IMG/VR virus record: IMGVR_UViG_2579778894_000010 | Length of the DNA stretch: 6,498 nt | Source of the DNA: a virus | Lineage: Duplodnaviria > Heunggongvirae > Uroviricota > Caudoviricetes | Direction: 5' to 3' (one strand) | Part shown: in pieces, positions 813-6,498 of the stretch | How the letters are laid out: the number at the start of each line of letters is the position of its first letter | How positions within the stretch are numbered: the first letter of the stretch is position 1 | Program-made: the position numbers and the translations under genes | Notes under the pieces: generated by a model | What the model saw: only the letters and a program-made list of their open reading frames with translations | Databases searched by the model: none | What the model was told of the DNA's origin: nothing

Positions 813-1462
813 GCCGCCATCTCCCTGACCAGTTTTTCCGCCTGCTGGCGAACCTGCGCCAGAAAGGCCTCACCACATGCCTCAAGTTCATCGCGCCCGA
901 TGTAGCTGATTGCCGGTCCCTTCCGGGTCTTGTCGAAAACAGCAATAGCACCAGCGAAGAAAGCGCCTGTCGGCACCTGCTTCTCGTCCTTCGGGATAAA
1001 CCAGGCTGGCAGTTCAAAACCAATACGCCCGCGAATAAAAGCAATATGGTCTGCATCTTCCGGCCACCAAACTTCGCTGGTGGCAGCTTTGATCAGGAAA
1101 ACATAGCGCCCGCCTTTATCACGCATGGCACTGGCATGCTTCATGATGTAACGCATGCCGGTGATGTATTGCCCCTCATGCTGACTGGCGCGGCTGTACG
1201 GGGGATTACCAAAGGCAGCACCTTTAAGCTCCGCAAGACGTTCTGACCAGTCATGCGCCAGCGCGTTGTCTTCCGCAGTGTAATACGCGGCGCATTTGGC
1301 GTTATCACCATCAGTAAACAGATCCAGAACAAACGGGCCAAACAGGGTGTTAATTCCCCAGAAAATGTTGTCCGGCGTGCGCCACTGATCGCCCACTTCC
1401 TTCAGTTCATGGGCTGGTTTGTTCCGCAGCTCCACCAGCGCCTGGCAATATTTATTACTCAT
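809..1462 (-). CDS. phage Dam-type DNA N6-adenine methyltransferase
   Basis: Catalytic motif NPPY in FGNPPYS; overall resemblance to phage orphan N6-adenine MTases. Start chosen at ATG 1462..1460 (MSNKYCQ...) because it overlaps the upstream stop as TAATG; the track ORF extends to 1495 with an alternative upstream start. Confidence 0.85.
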   Translation of the reverse strand: MSNKYCQALVELRNKPAHELKEVGDQWRTPDNIFWGINTLFGPFVLDLFTDGDNAKCAAYYTAEDNALAHDWSERLAELKGAAFGNPPYSRASQHEGQYITGMRYIMKHASAMRDKGGRYVFLIKAATSEVWWPEDADHIAFIRGRIGFELPAWFIPKDEKQVPTGAFFAGAIAVFDKTRKGPAISYIGRDELEACGEAFLAQVRQQAEKLVREMAA

Positions 1463-1952: not shown

Positions 1953-2894
1953 TCACCCCCTGAATCCTGCCGGGATCTGGCTGTAGTCCACGTTGTCGTA
2001 ACTGGCTTTGAAGTACGGGTCTTCGCGTTTTTCGGTGTACGTGCTGACGGACGGCGATAAGCGCAGGGAAAGCTCATCCCATTTTTCCCGCAGCTTCGAC
2101 GGGCTGAGCACGTTACGGCACCAGAACGGATCGCGACTGACGCGGCTGTACATCTCGCAGATTTGTTTATGAGTACGACCATCCTGCACACACATCAGGC
2201 GAATTTCGTTTGCCCAGGCTGTCCAGTTCGGTTCTTTGGGACGAACCACCTCGCCGTCACATTCGGCGGCATGCTCGTACAGGGCGATGATTTTTTTCCA
2301 GAGCCACTGTGCGCAGGTCAAATCATCCTGCGTCCCCCACTGGCGCTTTTTAGGGCTGAATACAACCGCATCAGGATGGCGAGTTAAAAAATCCTGTTCA
2401 GCCGTCTGCGTGTCCGGTTGCGAAGCGTCCGGACGAGAAGTTTTTTTATCTGACGGATCATGTTTTGATTTTACTGACGGATCCCCACCAGATTCTGACG
2501 GGTGAAAACCCGCTTTTTTGCCAGATTTCGACGCATCAAATTTTGACGGGTCAGATTTTGATGCGTCAGATTTTGACGGGTCAGAATCTGACAGTTGAGA
2601 AAATGCCGCTGCCTGAAGCTTCGCAACGTTAAGCTGATAAACATTCGACGCATTGCGGTTACCCTGGCGACGCGCCCTACGCGTTAACCAGCCTTCTGCT
2701 TCCAGCCGTGCGATAGCCGTTCTGACGGTACTCATCCCCGCGCCAATCTGGCGGGCAATGGTTTCAATTGATGGCCAGCACACACCTTCGTCATTACTGA
2801 AATCAGCCAGGCGGGCCATAATTGCCACGCTGGATAATTTCATGCCTGATGCAGCGCAACCATCCCATACATAGCCGGTTAATTTAGTGCTCAT
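1953..2894 (-). CDS. replication initiator (lambda O-like organisation: N-terminal HTH DNA-binding domain, repeat linker, DnaT-like C-terminal domain)
   Basis: 313 aa. N-terminal winged-HTH segment (VAIMARLADFSNDEGVCWPSIETIARQIGAGMSTVRTAIARLEAEGWL); low-complexity SK(S/F)D-rich linker encoded by the iteron array; C-terminal tail ending SQIPAGFRG resembles the C-terminus of host DnaT. SD AGAGG 8 nt upstream of ATG 2894. Confidence 0.8.
   Translation of the reverse strand: MSTKLTGYVWDGCAASGMKLSSVAIMARLADFSNDEGVCWPSIETIARQIGAGMSTVRTAIARLEAEGWLTRRARRQGNRNASNVYQLNVAKLQAAAFSQLSDSDPSKSDASKSDPSKFDASKSGKKAGFHPSESGGDPSVKSKHDPSDKKTSRPDASQPDTQTAEQDFLTRHPDAVVFSPKKRQWGTQDDLTCAQWLWKKIIALYEHAAECDGEVVRPKEPNWTAWANEIRLMCVQDGRTHKQICEMYSRVSRDPFWCRNVLSPSKLREKWDELSLRLSPSVSTYTEKREDPYFKASYDNVDYSQIPAGFRG
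2446..2598. repeat. iteron-like array (candidate origin of replication) inside the initiator gene
   Basis: Five tandem 15-bp units at 2524-2598 (GATTTCGACGCATCA, AATTTTGACGGGTCA, GATTTTGATGCGTCA, GATTTTGACGGGTCA, GAATCTGACAGTTGA) plus three more TGACGG-containing copies at 2446-2505. Each unit carries a short palindrome TGACGGGTCA. Confidence 0.6.
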
Positions 2895-2903
2895 GACCGA
2901 CCT

Positions 2904-3242
2904 CTATTTCCCTGAATTTACGACGAAACTGTTCGAGCGGGCTGAAGCACTCATGCTCATAGCCTTCGCGGAGGTAGATAACACGTTGTGTTTCCGGCTC
3001 CCAACGAATGACTCTGACGGGCACTCCGTAGTGATCTTTGAACCAGCGGTTAACTTGTCGCAAAGGACTGTCTCCTTCTGCCGGTTGAAATCACCCACAG
3101 CCCACTCTGCAAAGCTGTGGGTTACAATTTCCCTGTCACCTGGTACATTTACTGCATAGCAATACTCCACCTTCGCTTTTCCACCCGGTACAGGAAGCGC
3201 AATCAGTTGCGAGCGACGGTAGTGTGTTGTTAAACTGTTCAT
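2904..3242 (-). CDS. hypothetical protein (112 aa)
   Basis: ATG 3242..3240 overlaps the upstream TGA as ATGA; ends 10 nt before the initiator start. No recognisable motif; C-terminal third is low complexity. Contains a perfect 8-bp hairpin at 3094-3121. Confidence 0.5.
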
Positions 3243-3827: not shown

Positions 3828-4028
3828 TTATCCATTAGATTTTTCATAAAGCTCAGGTTTAAATGGCAACCGTCCGCAAGTTCTATATGCAGCTTCTGCT
3901 GCACGTCCTTTTGGAATTAACTGGCCCGGACGGTTTCGCCACTGATAAACGGCTTCAGTTGTTATGCCGAAAAAAGCAGCAACTTTCTCAATACTGCCGA
4001 AGTAGCTTTCGATATCGTCAGTTGTCAT
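3828..4028 (-). CDS. cro: Cro-type repressor (P22 Cro-like)
   Basis: 66 aa, divergent from the cI-like gene. HTH segment FGSIEKVAAFFGITTEAVYQWRN resembles P22 Cro as I recall it. Strong SD GGAGGG 5-10 nt upstream of ATG 4028. Confidence 0.8.
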   Translation of the reverse strand: MTTDDIESYFGSIEKVAAFFGITTEAVYQWRNRPGQLIPKGRAAEAAYRTCGRLPFKPELYEKSNG

Positions 4029-4125
4029 ACGCCCTCCAAACTAAGTTTTGTTAGATGCTAATTACAAATCTATCTTTGGTCAATAAAAACTAAGATTACT
4101 TAGCGATTAAAGAAATGGTGCTCCT
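4029..4125. promoter_or_regulatory. divergent immunity promoter/operator region (oR-like; pR toward cro, pRM toward cI)
   Basis: Two 14-bp dyad sites of form CTAA-N6-TTAG: 4041-4054 (CTAAGTTTTGTTAG) and 4090-4103 (CTAAGATTACTTAG). Minus-strand candidate pR: -35 TTGACC, 17-nt spacer, -10 TAGCAT, placed so the 4041-4054 site overlaps the transcript start. Confidence 0.6.
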
Positions 4126-4752
4126 ATGGAAACGGTTGGTCAGCGTATAAAAGCTCTGAGAAGAGTTACCAGAACGTCCCAGAAAGAATTGGGTAAATTT
4201 TGTGGAGTAAGCGACGTTGCTGTGGGGTACTGGGAGAAAGACATCAATACCCCTGGCGGGGAGGCACTTTCGAAATTAGCGAAGTTCTTCAATACGTCAA
4301 TAGATTACATTCTTTACGGTGCTGAGTTTGAAGGCAAACTCGTCACAAACATGCGCAGAGTTCCTGTAATATCGTGGGTTCAGGCTGGGCAGTTTACTGA
4401 GTGCAGGGCAGCAGAAGTGTTTAGTGAAGTGGACAAGTGGGTAGATACATCATTAAAGGTTGGTGATAACTCATTTGCATTAGAGGTTAAAGGTGACTCC
4501 ATGACTAACCCTAATGGCCTCCCAACAATACCAGAAGGCGCAACAGTGATTGTAGATCCAGATGCAGAACCTCGTCATGGAAAAATAGTCATCGCTCGAC
4601 TTGATGGAACAAACGAAGCTACAGTAAAAAAATTAGTCATCGATGGCCCTCAAAAGTTTTTAGTGCCATTAAATCCTCGGTATCCCAACATCCCTATCAA
4701 TGGTAATTGCCTTATCATTGGTGTAGTCAAAGGAGTTCAATACGAACTCTAA
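4126..4752 (+). CDS. cI: cI/C2-type prophage repressor (XRE HTH plus S24 LexA-like autopeptidase domain)
   Basis: 208 aa. N-terminal HTH (QKELGKFCGVSDVAVGYWEK); C-terminal S24 signatures: catalytic Ser in GDSM, Lys in EATVKKLV, and a cleavage-site-like AG; overall resembles P22 C2. Confidence 0.9.
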   Translation: METVGQRIKALRRVTRTSQKELGKFCGVSDVAVGYWEKDINTPGGEALSKLAKFFNTSIDYILYGAEFEGKLVTNMRRVPVISWVQAGQFTECRAAEVFSEVDKWVDTSLKVGDNSFALEVKGDSMTNPNGLPTIPEGATVIVDPDAEPRHGKIVIARLDGTNEATVKKLVIDGPQKFLVPLNPRYPNIPINGNCLIIGVVKGVQYEL

Positions 4753-4797: not shown

Positions 4798-4824
4798 GTT
4801 TTCTCTTGTCATGATAACTAAGTT
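4796..4824 (+). promoter_or_regulatory. candidate pL/oL-like element: operator copy overlapping a sigma70-like promoter
   Basis: AACTAAGTTAAGTTAGAT (4806-4823) matches the oR site AACTAAGTTTTGTTAGAT (4039-4056) at 16 of 18 positions. It sits inside -35 TTGTCA (4796-4801), 17-nt spacer, -10 TAGATT (4819-4824) on the plus strand. Confidence 0.4.
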
Positions 4825-4917
4825 AAGTTAGATTTTATATCAAAGATAACGAACAGGCAGGACGCCCACGAAGTAGCCGCCTGGGGCATATGAAGTCCAG
4901 GATGATTCGTTAGCAAC

Positions 4918-4940
4918 AAAAAAGCGCCCTACAGGACGCT
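4918..4940 (-). terminator. rho-independent terminator for the minus-strand orphan gene
   Basis: On the minus strand: AGCGUCC-UGUA-GGGCGCU stem-loop (7 bp, one G-U) followed by U6 (plus-strand A-run 4918-4923), about 40 nt after the stop at 4980. It is strand-specific: the same position is a C-A mismatch in plus-strand RNA. Confidence 0.5.
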
Positions 4941-4979
4941 TAGCTCTTTAACAATCTGGATATCCACAACAGTAGTAAT

Positions 4980-5471
4980 CTACAGATTGCCGTTAAGTTT
5001 TCTGGACAACTCCTCAATGGATGGAGGCGATACGTAATCCGGATTTTTATTCATCAGAAACTTATTTTCACAGTGGAGGCACCTGCTTTTATGAAAAAGC
5101 TCATCTTCGCTAACCGGGAATGGTTGAAGTATCGATACTATCTTTTGTCCAAAACATTTTGGGCAAAGATGCATGGTTATGCTGCCACCGTTCACGATTA
5201 CCTCCTTCGAGTATACAAAAGTACCCGACTCAAGTTGGTTAAGGATATAGCCTTCCGTCTGAGCCTCAAAGTTTTCGAATTCTGCAATTTTAGCTTTGAG
5301 AGAAGCATTTATTTCTTGATAAGAGCCCACCAGTTCAACGAGAGACACGCATTCGCGCTGAATAGACGCAAGCTTTGAGTTCAGCTCACCAATAGCCGCA
5401 TTTACTTCAGCTTGAGTTTTTGCCTCGTTCATTAGTTTTGCAATCTGGGCTGTTTCACGAATAGCCGTCAT
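4980..5471 (-). CDS. orphan coiled-coil / C4 zinc-ribbon protein (about 163 aa); candidate moron
   Basis: Predicted start ATG 5471..5469 (MTAIRETAQIAKLMNEAK...); the track ORF extends to 5759 but the extra N-terminal 96 codons look like non-coding read-through. N-terminal half is heptad-like and Ala/Glu/Lys-rich; C-terminal half has CPKC-x21-CLHC. By eye it is AT-rich and convergent with cI. Alternative GTG start at 5495. Confidence 0.6.
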   Translation of the reverse strand: MTAIRETAQIAKLMNEAKTQAEVNAAIGELNSKLASIQRECVSLVELVGSYQEINASLKAKIAEFENFEAQTEGYILNQLESGTFVYSKEVIVNGGSITMHLCPKCFGQKIVSILQPFPVSEDELFHKSRCLHCENKFLMNKNPDYVSPPSIEELSRKLNGNL

Positions 5472-5509
5472 TGCTGCCGTTAATTCAGCGATCACATTGA
5501 ATACTCTTA

Positions 5510-5555
5510 TTGTTGTTGGGGATATCCAGATTAACCGAATCCTTGTTGTTGGGGA
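5510..5555. repeat. two exact 13-bp direct repeats (TTGTTGTTGGGGA) spaced 33 bp, upstream of the orphan gene
   Basis: Copies at 5510-5522 and 5543-5555, lying 40-85 bp upstream of the predicted start at 5471. Confidence 0.6.
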
Positions 5556-5782
5556 ATAACCAGGTCCACCTCGCCTGATGTGGCTAAAAGCAGGCACATA
5601 ACAGCTAAGTATTTTCAACCAGAGAGAATCCTTAGCGTTGTGGTGAATGCGGCTCAGCGCACGCGGGTTAAGGTTGAGGCTGACAGTCGACCTTCTGTGG
5701 ATACCCACCCGCCTGGTGTGCAACCTTCGCCAGGCACCGGGAGGCACCCGGCACCACAACTTTATGCTGTGTGTAGTCCTGG

Positions 5783-5828
5783 CGGTACCAGTTTGTACCC
5801 TTGCTTCCGGCTGGTACCGTCCTTTTTT
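5783..5828 (+). terminator. terminator-like hairpin followed by a T-run (plus strand)
   Basis: Perfect 9-bp stem CGGTACCAG (5783-5791) / CTGGTACCG (5811-5819), 19-nt loop, then TCC TTTTTT (T-run 5823-5828). Confidence 0.45.
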
Positions 5829-5829
5829 G

Positions 5830-5916
5830 CAAAACAGAGAAGAGCATCACCGGACGACGGGCTCATAACCCAATCCATCCGGGCGGCTGCCACCGCAGGT
5901 GTTCTTCTCTGTTTTG
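5830..5916. repeat. 14-bp perfect inverted repeat enclosing a 59-bp GC-rich segment
   Basis: CAAAACAGAGAAGA (5830-5843) and TCTTCTCTGTTTTG (5903-5916) are exact reverse complements; the enclosed sequence contains further short stems such as CCGGG/CCCGG. Confidence 0.55.
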
Positions 5917-5965
5917 TGGAGAAACCAACCGACCTTGCAGGGTCGATATGATGAGGAGCAGCAAA

Positions 5966-6328
5966 ATGGCTAGCGAACGCAGTACTGATGTGCAGGCATT
6001 TATCGGGGAGCTGGACGGCGGCGTATTTGAAACCAAAATCGGCGCAGTTCTCAGTGAGGTCGCTTCCGGTGTGATGAACACGAAAACCAAAGGGAAGGTC
6101 TCACTCAATCTGGAAATCGAACCGTTTGATGAGAACCGTGTGAAAATCAAACACAAACTCTCATATGTTCGCCCAACTAACCGCGGGAAAATTTCCGAAG
6201 AAGACACCACCGAAACGCCGATGTATGTCAATCGCGGTGGTCGCCTGACTATTCTGCAGGAAGACCAGGGACAATTACTGACTCTTGCCGGTGAACCTGA
6301 CGGAAAACTCCGCGCAGCAGGTCGTTAA
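5966..6328 (+). CDS. hypothetical protein (120 aa) in the first-leftward-gene (N) position
   Basis: ATG 5966 preceded by SD GAGGAG (5953-5958) at a 7-nt spacer; the track ORF start at 5801 is an upstream extension through GC-rich non-coding sequence. No Arg-rich N-like motif and no family recognised. Confidence 0.65.
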   Translation: MASERSTDVQAFIGELDGGVFETKIGAVLSEVASGVMNTKTKGKVSLNLEIEPFDENRVKIKHKLSYVRPTNRGKISEEDTTETPMYVNRGGRLTILQEDQGQLLTLAGEPDGKLRAAGR

Positions 6329-6393: not shown

Positions 6394-6447
6394 ATGTCTC
6401 AGAACTTAGGGAAGGTGCGAATAAGCGGGGAAATACTTCTCGGCTGA
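6394..6447 (+). CDS. possible 17-codon small ORF (MSQNLGKVRISGEILLG)
   Basis: SD GAGGA (6383-6387) 6 nt before ATG 6394; followed by a 6-bp stem TCGGCT (6440-6445) / AGCCGA (6475-6480) and TTTTTT (6481-6486). Very short, so speculative. Confidence 0.2.
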   Translation: MSQNLGKVRISGEILLG

Positions 6448-6498
6448 CTCAGTCATTTCATTTCTTCATGTTTGAGCCGATTTTTTCTCCCGTAAATG

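Follow-up and report, generated by a model that had tools for sequence, protein, structure and literature searches.

What kind of element fills the GC-rich interval between an orphan gene and the first leftward gene of an SfV-like lambdoid prophage, and on which strand does it work? The whole stretch of DNA analysed here (the window, 6,498 nucleotides) carries such a block, for which a preliminary description had placed the limits at 5600-5945 and offered three candidate roles: an RNA-based antitermination element, a structured sRNA or a leader of the orphan gene. Positions 5480-5965 are 100% identical to Escherichia phage PhiR49_1 and to many E. coli chromosomes, and the block, or most of it, is present in 3008 of 5426 complete E. 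coli genomes. Public records routinely label it as hypothetical proteins, on either strand. Of the three roles, the structured sRNA fits best, as judged by a sub-threshold match to the STnc100 family, by the locus and ends of a published RNA (sRNA-17) and by a seed-like strand beside a terminator. We consider it probable, though well short of certain, that the block holds an sRNA unit embedded in an operon leader, with a terminator that also attenuates the operon.

Genomic setting and coding status of the block

The cro gene (3828-4028) lies on the minus strand, as do the replication genes, and cI (4126-4752) on the plus strand. A repeat search found a family of operator-like repeats (D1), with two copies in the cro-cI interval (oR; 4034-4054 and 4083-4103) and a third at 4811-4831. 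Overlapping this third copy is a candidate pL promoter on the plus strand (TTGTCA-17-TAGATT, 4806-4834), the only plus-strand promoter-like site that the promoter scan returned for the region. We take it as pL and as the likely source of the transcript of the block; the same scan found no promoter in positions 5480-5636 of the window. Between the candidate pL and the block lies the orphan gene (4980-5471, minus strand). On the far side, the first operon gene is yfdP-like (5966-6328, plus strand; identified from the ORF list, PHROG family phrog_204 and the K-12 YfdP annotation), with a Shine-Dalgarno sequence GAGGAG at 5953-5958 and its ATG at 5966. Past this gene only the first yfdQ codons remain, interrupted by an IS5 end; in relatives the operon goes on via yfdR, yfdS and yfdT up to xis and int. 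The block is the untranslated leader of this repressor-controlled early-left operon (yfdP, yfdQ and onwards to xis/int), a structured RNA on the strand of the operon, in keeping with the leftward-leader position first proposed for it.

The conserved unit, at about 5566-5965, is wider than the interval originally delimited. The part common to SfV and phiES15 begins at a conserved upstream segment, CTCGCCTGATGTGGCTAAAAGCAGGCACATAACAG (5570-5603, plus strand, including a GCCUG..CAGGC hairpin; alignment A2), and homology with SfV-type phages reaches its limit near 5566. A hairpin, P0 (GCUAAG..CUUAGC, 5604-5636, plus strand; minimum free energy (MFE) fold and alignment A2), stands directly 5' of the core described below, and ST64B has a different hairpin in that position. 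At the other end, just 5' of the ribosome-binding site, the MFE fold gives a small plus-strand hairpin (CGACC-UUGCAG-GGUCG, 5930-5945), the place of which is occupied in ST64B by GGCGG..CCGCC (alignment A2). Two candidates were rejected. K-12 CPS-53 does not carry the block, a deletion there having fused the O-gene iterons to the yfdP ribosome-binding site, and the spacing of a sigma-54-like motif (TGGC-N9-GC, 5581-5595) is not kept in SfV.

GC content in the block is 0.56-0.60, against 0.41-0.45 in the flanks. The plus strand folds at -159.8 kcal/mol compared with -123.5 ± 5.7 kcal/mol for shuffles (z = -6.4; none of 100 shuffles as good), which bears out the initial picture of a GC-rich, hairpin-dense block. 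A decayed or unrecognised protein-coding gene would be suggested by the open reading frames that span the block (123 amino acids on the plus strand, 60 and 43 on the minus strand, and a further one of 73), by hypothetical-protein annotations and by small PHROG matches. None of these frames has a Pfam match, however, and the PHROG matches are partial, lie on both strands and belong to tiny families of unknown function. In the ST64B homologue, indels of 1 nt and 20 nt disrupt every frame while the RNA pairs and helices are preserved (alignment A2). Because Pfam matches are absent, the ST64B indels break the frames with the helices kept and the fold excess lies on the plus strand, we regard the block as non-coding, as had been proposed, with its signal on the plus strand; a protein-coding origin is scarcely credible.

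The minus strand also folds better than its shuffles (z = -4.0), and on that strand the block lies upstream of the orphan gene, as a regulatory region, an antisense RNA or a leader of that gene would. However, the Rfam match, the G-U pairs and the terminator described below work on the plus strand only, and the promoter scan found no minus-strand promoter in the block. Moreover, the block is kept in phages whose cargo differs or is on the other strand. These observations leave a role in the control of the orphan gene extremely improbable, and the suggestion that the block is its leader did not hold.

A pseudoknotted domain related to STnc100

The proposed Rfam covariance scan returned a full-length plus-strand match to STnc100 (RF02076) at 5607-5830 (E = 2.8e-6, model positions 1-206). 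Its score of 40.3 bits lies just below the gathering score of 47. The core alone scores 32.8 bits. Canonical copies score 72-131 bits against the same model, and the relatives in phiES15, RCS47, ST64B and Qin 33-41 bits. Matches to mir-5880, ftsZ-DE, 6C and MIR1094 were weak and were discarded as noise.

The matched element, module A (5636-5828, plus strand), consists of a pseudoknotted multi-helix domain, a 14-nt single strand and an intrinsic terminator. Its STnc100-like core, supported by the RF02076 match and by covariation, occupies 5637-5760. On the plus strand it comprises helices P1 (5637-5645/5752-5760), P2 (5648-5651/5658-5661), P3 (5664-5668/5707-5711) and P4 (5712-5718/5728-5734), a pseudoknot (5670-5676/5721-5727) and helix P5, with loop AGGCA (5737-5741/5747-5751). 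The smaller stems noticed at the outset, GCCTGG..CCAGGC (5711-5735) and CCGGG..CCCGG (5737-5751), are both present. The architecture is common to all copies. Helix P1 closes the domain and is followed by a short AAU junction and hairpin P2; then come a strand that pairs with the loop of the P4 hairpin, forming the pseudoknot, and a variable insert; finally, a near-invariant P5 (CCGGG-AGGCA-CCCGG) that abuts the 3' strand of P1. With STnc100, PasD1/D2 and EcOnc27 the window element has in common P1, the GGUGAAU junction (5642-5648), the pairing of the P4 loop with the strand after P2, an invariant CACCGGGAGGCACCCGGCACCA (5734-5756) and the terminator. It differs in P2, which is a CCCCC/GGGG helix in STnc100 (CCCCC-NNGCG-GNGGGG) and UGCG/CGCA in the window (UGCG-GCUCAG-CGCA, the pairs of which are flagged as non-standard in the model alignment), and in the extra helix P3.

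Relatives were gathered via the invariant P5 motif and the window-type P2 motif, which gave hundreds of copies. Clustering yielded 32 canonical clusters at 80% identity and, from the window-type motif scan, 31 at 90%, of which three without the P5 hairpin were set aside. Apart from one 388-bp contig with another label, the genome scan found complete copies in Enterobacterales genera only. Pairs were counted on alignment A1, a MAFFT alignment of 28 window-type sequences. Helix P1 is 97.6% paired, with compensatory changes on both sides in five of its nine pairs, P2 is 97% paired and P5 is 100% paired, with a G-C to U-A replacement in 12 of the 28 sequences. Such counts fail for P3, P4 and the pseudoknot, owing to register shifts between subgroups; P4 and the pseudoknot were instead assessed by parsing each sequence and comparing cognate with non-cognate pairings. 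The parse distinguished 59 different P4 stems and 54 different pseudoknot duplexes, with the start always at core positions 28-33, and pseudoknot/P4 pairing of at least 6 bp was found in 70.7% of cognate against 21.6% of non-cognate combinations. The duplexes include AAGGUUG/CAACCUU (window), AAGGCUGG/UCAGCCUU (phiES15), CAGUUAA/UUAACUG (Qin), CAGUCAA/UUGACUG and AGACUGACAAA/UUUGUCAGUCU. Covariation, recommended earlier as a check, supports the fold of module A including its pseudoknot, with covarying pairs behind P1, P2, P5, P4 and the pseudoknot.

Two further roles for parts of this fold were rejected. A riboswitch-like switch between the 3' arm of P4 (CGCCAGG) and CCUGGCG at the foot of the terminator is not kept in ST64B or phiES15, and the pyrimidine-rich variable loops match downstream ribosome-binding sites over 5 bp only, too little for an anti-Shine-Dalgarno role.

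Terminator, seed-like strand and deployment of the domain

Downstream of the core, an intrinsic terminator (5781-5828, plus strand; -20.5 kcal/mol) supplies the rho-independent terminator with which RF02076 closes. Its 13-bp stem contains the perfect 9-bp stem reported from the sequence (CGGTACCAG at 5783-5791 with CTGGTACCG at 5811-5819), followed by the T-run, here U6 at 5823-5828. It is 93-97% identical to mEp460 and Stx2c phages and homologous to the 3' end of sRNA-17. Between P1 and this terminator runs a 14-nt plus-strand single strand, UGCUGUGUGUAGUC (5765-5778), which stays the same in 25 of 31 distinct contexts, where several types of core are combined with four or more unrelated terminator hairpins. 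An sRNA seed beside an Hfq-binding terminator would be expected to show such constancy, which makes UGCUGUGUGUAGUC a candidate seed; no complement of it, or seed target, was found within the window. The DicF model (RF00039) also aligns, weakly but over its full length, at 5768-5822, at 15.7 bits against a threshold of 48, and places UGCUGUGUGUAGUC opposite the 5' seed of DicF. The 3' third of the RNA thus looks, from its sequence, like a DicF-type seed-terminator unit with a different seed. DicF, too, is an operon-internal sRNA of a repressor-controlled early operon (the Qin dicB operon) and has a single-stranded seed followed by a GGCGGUA.CAGUUU.. terminator hairpin. The seed sequence differs, however, and the module order is reversed, the window-type core of Qin coming directly after DicF.

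The block places a structured RNA directly before an intrinsic terminator. No N gene is recognisable from pL to yfdP, and the SfV leader contains multiple terminators; this arrangement invites comparison with the put and nut sites that had been suggested for this position. Such a cis-acting RNA would allow processive read-through of the terminator ending at 5823-5828 and of later ones, as HK022 put does in an early operon without an N gene, dependent there on the beta-prime zinc-binding domain. However, local alignments of the block with HK022 putL and putR scored 15-22, within the shuffle range (putL against putR, 35), and no similarity of fold was found. The put sites lie just past both early promoters, whereas the block is about 800 nt downstream of the candidate pL and is present in a single copy, with none in the pR operon. 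In addition, relatives of the block terminate normally, those with their own promoter giving discrete terminated sRNAs, and the Qin element comes after, not before, the dicF terminator. With no boxA inside the block either, the nut/put proposal lost its footing and this alternative is very improbable. A K-12 candidate for a put-like RNA, pawZ, turned out to be the argW attR pseudogene.

The only match of the window to boxA (YGCUCUUUA) lies outside the block, about 100 nt past the pL start, where a plus-strand hairpin (4922-4941) is followed by an exact rrn-type boxA, GCUCUUUAACAA (4943-4954; 0.04 matches expected by chance with up to one mismatch). The sequence is identical to the rrnG boxA-spacer ugcucuuuaacaa (PMC2724277). 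The order of hairpin and boxA in the pL leader is the boxB-boxA order of rrn leaders, and the boxA recurs in other prophages behind different hairpins and different operators. It is a candidate Nus-factor loading site, and a Nus-factor complex assembled there would protect the long untranslated leader from Rho. Such a complex is not expected to override an intrinsic terminator.

An RNA from the corresponding locus has already been mapped. sRNA-17 of E. coli K1 RS218 is 193 nt long, determined by 5' and 3' RACE and confirmed by Northern blot (Sun et al. 2020, PMC7719688); its authors reported that it had no homologue in Rfam and that its promoter was regulated by ArcA, and they left a polar effect on yfdP out of account. 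We placed it at mEp460 2854-3046 from the published primers, RACE primers and Northern probe (PMC7719688), and the orientation of the RACE primers and the probe makes it yfdP-sense. Its 5' end, CGUUGUGGUGAAUGCG, is the 5' strand of helix P1, with C5636 as the counterpart in the window, and its 3' RACE end falls within the terminator U-run. Like module A, it lies on the same strand of the interval between immunity region and yfdP in an SfV/mEp460-like prophage, with the CGUUGUGGUGAAUGCG 5' sequence, the homologous terminator and a length of about 190 nt. Both ends are conserved in the window, as CGTTGTGGTGAATGCG and GGCGGTACCAG..CTGGTACCG(T/C)(C/T)CTTTT (alignment A2). The interiors are of different types, STnc100-like in the window and another in mEp460 and RS218: mEp460 2871-2975 gave no alignment with window 5652-5745, megablast homology to mEp460 starts at about 5780, and P5 is CCGG-AGAUCAGCA-CCGG, with a different centre. 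By its ends, the window counterpart of sRNA-17 would span 5636 to about 5826.

The block is an operon-embedded and divergent variant within a known family of prophage sRNAs, with a sister RNA already published at the same locus. The link between PasD and STnc100 has been noted before (bioRxiv 10.64898/2026.05.13.724894). The wider family ties and a second fold, module B, appear undescribed. What is newer comprises the pseudoknot, the links across the family, the invariance of the seed-like strand, the boxA upstream of the block and module B.

How the domain is deployed differs between its two types. Canonical copies are stand-alone sRNA genes: a sigma-70 promoter ends a few bases 5' of P1 in 30 of 142 (strict rule) and a terminator follows 30-80 nt past P1 in 81 of 142, and in many cases this terminator stands back to back with a convergent one. 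A tRNA lies within 300 nt upstream in only 20 of 189. This agrees with the EcOnc27 and PasD literature, which describes Hfq-dependent, Northern-validated RNAs (PMC8550237, PMC12711010): EcOnc27/sRNA103 sits downstream of stx2B (PMC12711010), and PasD1 and PasD2, Northern-validated and dependent on Hfq (PMC8550237), are abundant on CsrA, with PasD2 a major CsrA-bound RNA. Whereas STnc100, PasD and EcOnc27 stand alone near late or stx genes, the window element is promoterless and within an early operon. Window-type copies, at 33-41 bits in Rfam, lie inside repressor-controlled early operons: in the spacer between the dicF terminator and dicB of Qin-like prophages, before kilR, before kil of Cronobacter phage phiES15, and between upl and tciA in the C1-controlled ban operon of P1-like phages. 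In the window and in the SfV/ST64B/phiES15 subgroup the core is followed by a terminator.

Might the core instead be a leader that acts purely in cis, controlling the early gene behind it, which is often toxic, either as a device for processing and stabilisation or as a 5'-UTR domain that binds a protein, with the short terminated RNA a by-product without function in trans? Window-type cores stand directly before dicB, kilR, phiES15 kil, P1 tciA and other ORFs. None of 60 has a promoter directly 5', and 47 of the 60 lead without an intervening terminator to a Shine-Dalgarno sequence and ATG, as before dicB and kilR, an argument that the core may in itself be a 5'-UTR element acting in cis. The sRNA-17 5' end lies exactly at the foot of P1, as expected of a 5'-terminal protective helix, and the lack of variation in the P5 loop and the J1/2 junction suggests that a conserved partner binds there. 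However, canonical members are free-standing units that bring their own promoter and terminator and have been validated as Hfq sRNAs, and in the window a terminator and the invariant seed-like strand come after the core. On this evidence we find a leader acting only in cis doubtful, yet of some standing as the main rival.

The embedded sRNA unit that we favour would work as follows. Transcription would start at the operator-covered promoter at 4806-4834, pass the boxA at 4943-4954 and run antisense through the cargo gene. It would then enter module A, with its STnc100/PasD-family domain (5637-5760), 14-nt strand (5765-5778) and terminator (5781-5828). An RNA of about 190 nt, the counterpart of sRNA-17, would be freed by termination at the U-run together with a cut at the foot of P1; by analogy with STnc100, EcOnc27, PasD and DicF it may act in trans, pairing through its conserved strand and using the terminator tail as an Hfq-binding end. 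The same terminator would reduce transcription into yfdP and beyond, and polymerases that read through would yield module B and the small hairpin, which might determine the form of the yfdP mRNA at its 5' end or how that mRNA is translated. Counting against this account, pL should be repressed in a lysogen.

Data on sRNA-17 bear on processing and attenuation. Because the qRT-PCR amplicon starts 250 nt 5' of the end mapped by 5' RACE, there must be a longer precursor, and processing probably generates the mapped end. Deletion of sRNA-17 raised yfdP about 95-fold, and yfdR also rose (PMC7719688). According to the primers, the deletion removed only the interior of the core (about 118 bp), keeping the terminator and leaving a resistance cassette. 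The 95-fold rise is therefore not proof of attenuation; it demonstrates linkage in cis but no mechanism. More broadly, viewing these sites as one type of RNA locus unites sRNA-17, STnc100/PasD/EcOnc27, the spacer between dicF and dicB, the leader of kilR and the ban operon of P1 in a single covarying pseudoknotted fold, which points to a shared partner. This view also suggests a fresh look at the virulence and transcriptome phenotypes reported for the sRNA-17 deletion, since they may include a polar effect on the yfdP-int operon.

Module B and its likeness to tRNA

Behind the terminator lies a second, unnamed structured RNA. Module B (5823-5923, plus strand; MFE fold and RNAalifold) is a three-way junction with a 26-bp long stem (5823-5848/5898-5923), arm A (5850-5882) and arm B (5883-5896). 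The long stem includes the exact 14-bp inverted repeat that had drawn attention to the locus (5830-5843/5903-5916, enclosing 59 nt), the arms of which can be extended to 24 nt at 83% complementarity in the repeat search. Long perfect stems in leaders can be RNase III sites, as in the lambda N leader, which makes such a role plausible here. Among viral contigs module B occurs at 120 or more loci, in at least 18 clusters at 85% identity, and almost always starts right behind a terminator U-run; in P1-like phages it lies 5' of the core rather than 3', twice. RNAalifold on 12 diverse copies gave 32 pairs, 12 of them with compensatory changes (for example C-G to G-C in 5 of the 12), and the G-U pairs are consistent with the plus strand only. 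No Rfam family matches it.

CGGGCUCAUAACCC (5858-5871), which forms the apex of arm A, shares all its 14 nt with the anticodon stem-loop of the E. coli initiator tRNA (metZ tRNA-fMet), and the loop YUCAUAW is preserved in P1-like and Raoultella copies. Unlike the initiator tRNA, module B has a 26-bp basal stem and lacks a D arm and a T loop. ARAGORN found no tRNA in the window, and RF00005 gave no match at E up to 10 in 5625-5770 or 5740-5965.

Modules A and B could both be tRNA-derived docking modules that enterobacterial phages shuffle within their early operons, a reading that we judge unlikely. P1 would then be the acceptor stem, P2 the D arm, P4 the variable arm and P5 the T arm; module A, a degenerate cloverleaf, would be matured at the foot of P1, with a host factor such as CsrA, Hfq or RNase P binding the invariant P5 loop, and module B would display its initiator anticodon-arm copy for the 30S P site, MetRS or an anticodon nuclease. 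If this were true, the modules and DicF-like seed-terminator units would make up an unrecognised RNA toolkit gating kil-type and excision genes. Descent from tRNA remains only a lead, since the window core gives no tRNA match. The helix order of module A nevertheless mirrors the tRNA cloverleaf. At one locus the place of module A, between CGUUGUGG and CCACAAC, is taken by an RNA scoring above the Rfam threshold for tRNA, and the acceptor stem of that RNA corresponds to helix P1.

A possible cargo slot, and a boxA in the pL leader

The orphan gene, a minus-strand cargo gene at 4980-5471, encodes a protein of 163 aa that matches phrog_1244 (unknown function, E = 2.4e-58). The N-terminal half of this protein is coiled-coil-like and a CxxC..CxxC motif lies close to its C-terminus; the gene has its own minus-strand terminator at 4922-4941. 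It is enclosed by a 26-nt inverted repeat (4953-4978 and 5507-5532, 85% complementary), and an extra copy in direct orientation (5537-5563) adjoins the right arm. Loci other than this one carry different cargo, which starts directly behind AACAATCTGG. The arrangement looks like a slot for exchanging cargo, with the pL leader on one side and the conserved RNA block on the other.

On the plus strand, a hairpin followed by boxA GCTCTTTAACAA was found by sequence match at 4922-4954. In the window, GCTCTTTAACAA is identical to the rrnG boxA-spacer, and the candidate pL, a promoter-like site, lies ∼100 nt upstream of it. The same boxA occurs behind different hairpins in other prophage loci. This hairpin-boxA element is a probable Nus-factor (anti-Rho) site serving the long untranslated leader.

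The RNA block and its relatives

Translations of the RNA block, the non-coding structured leader upstream of the yfdP-like gene, match phrog_33599, phrog_3651 and phrog_38074 (5580-5951, plus strand, and 5762-5893, minus strand). The matches fall on opposite strands, and we consider these families probably built from spurious ORF calls. Within module A, which joins an STnc100-like core to an intrinsic terminator, CGCCAGG in the 3' arm of helix P4 (5728-5734) and CCUGGCG at the terminator foot (5778-5784) are perfect complements. Such a pairing could serve as an antiterminator in the window lineage, but it is not conserved in ST64B or phiES15.

Phage P1 carries two tandem units in its ban operon (L008 2590-3130, plus strand), each consisting of module B, a three-way junction, and a core-like domain. 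On the minus strand, plp and upl are annotated across the same stretch, and these annotations may merit re-examination. At locus L427, the module A position is taken by a 127-nt RNA (1077-1203, minus strand) scoring 43.9 bits against the Rfam tRNA model; ARAGORN made no tRNA call on it. Its anticodon region is replaced by a 64-nt insert containing GGUUCAUAACC, and its acceptor stem UGUGGUU/AACCACA is the counterpart of helix P1 in module A. In the pR-side region of ST64B (L005 409-597, minus strand), IsrK, at 64.3 bits, was found adjacent to C4 antisense RNA, at 79.7 bits.

Published sRNA-17 assays

The qRT-PCR amplicon for sRNA-17, the 193-nt RNA of E. coli K1 RS218, is ∼397 bp long and corresponds to mEp460 2604-3000 (PMC7719688 Table S2), so that 250 nt of it precede the mapped 5' end. 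In the deletion strain the terminator was retained and a cassette left in place (PMC7719688 Table S2). The published expression changes and yfdP/yfdR de-repression may therefore stem from polar effects and from a transcript longer than sRNA-17.

IS5 in yfdQ, and O-gene repeats

An IS5 end (6406-6498), 98.9% identical to the annotated IS5 of the P1 and phage 434 records, breaks yfdQ (start 6394) within a few codons; the early-left operon of the window prophage is therefore disrupted. Tandem GACGGGTCAGATTTTGA-type repeats within the replication O gene (2519-2593), probably origin iterons, account for spurious mir-5880 Rfam matches. In E. coli K-12 CPS-53 (L001 9200-9620) the entire RNA block is absent: a deletion has fused the iterons of the O gene, annotated there as yfdO, with the yfdP ribosome-binding site.
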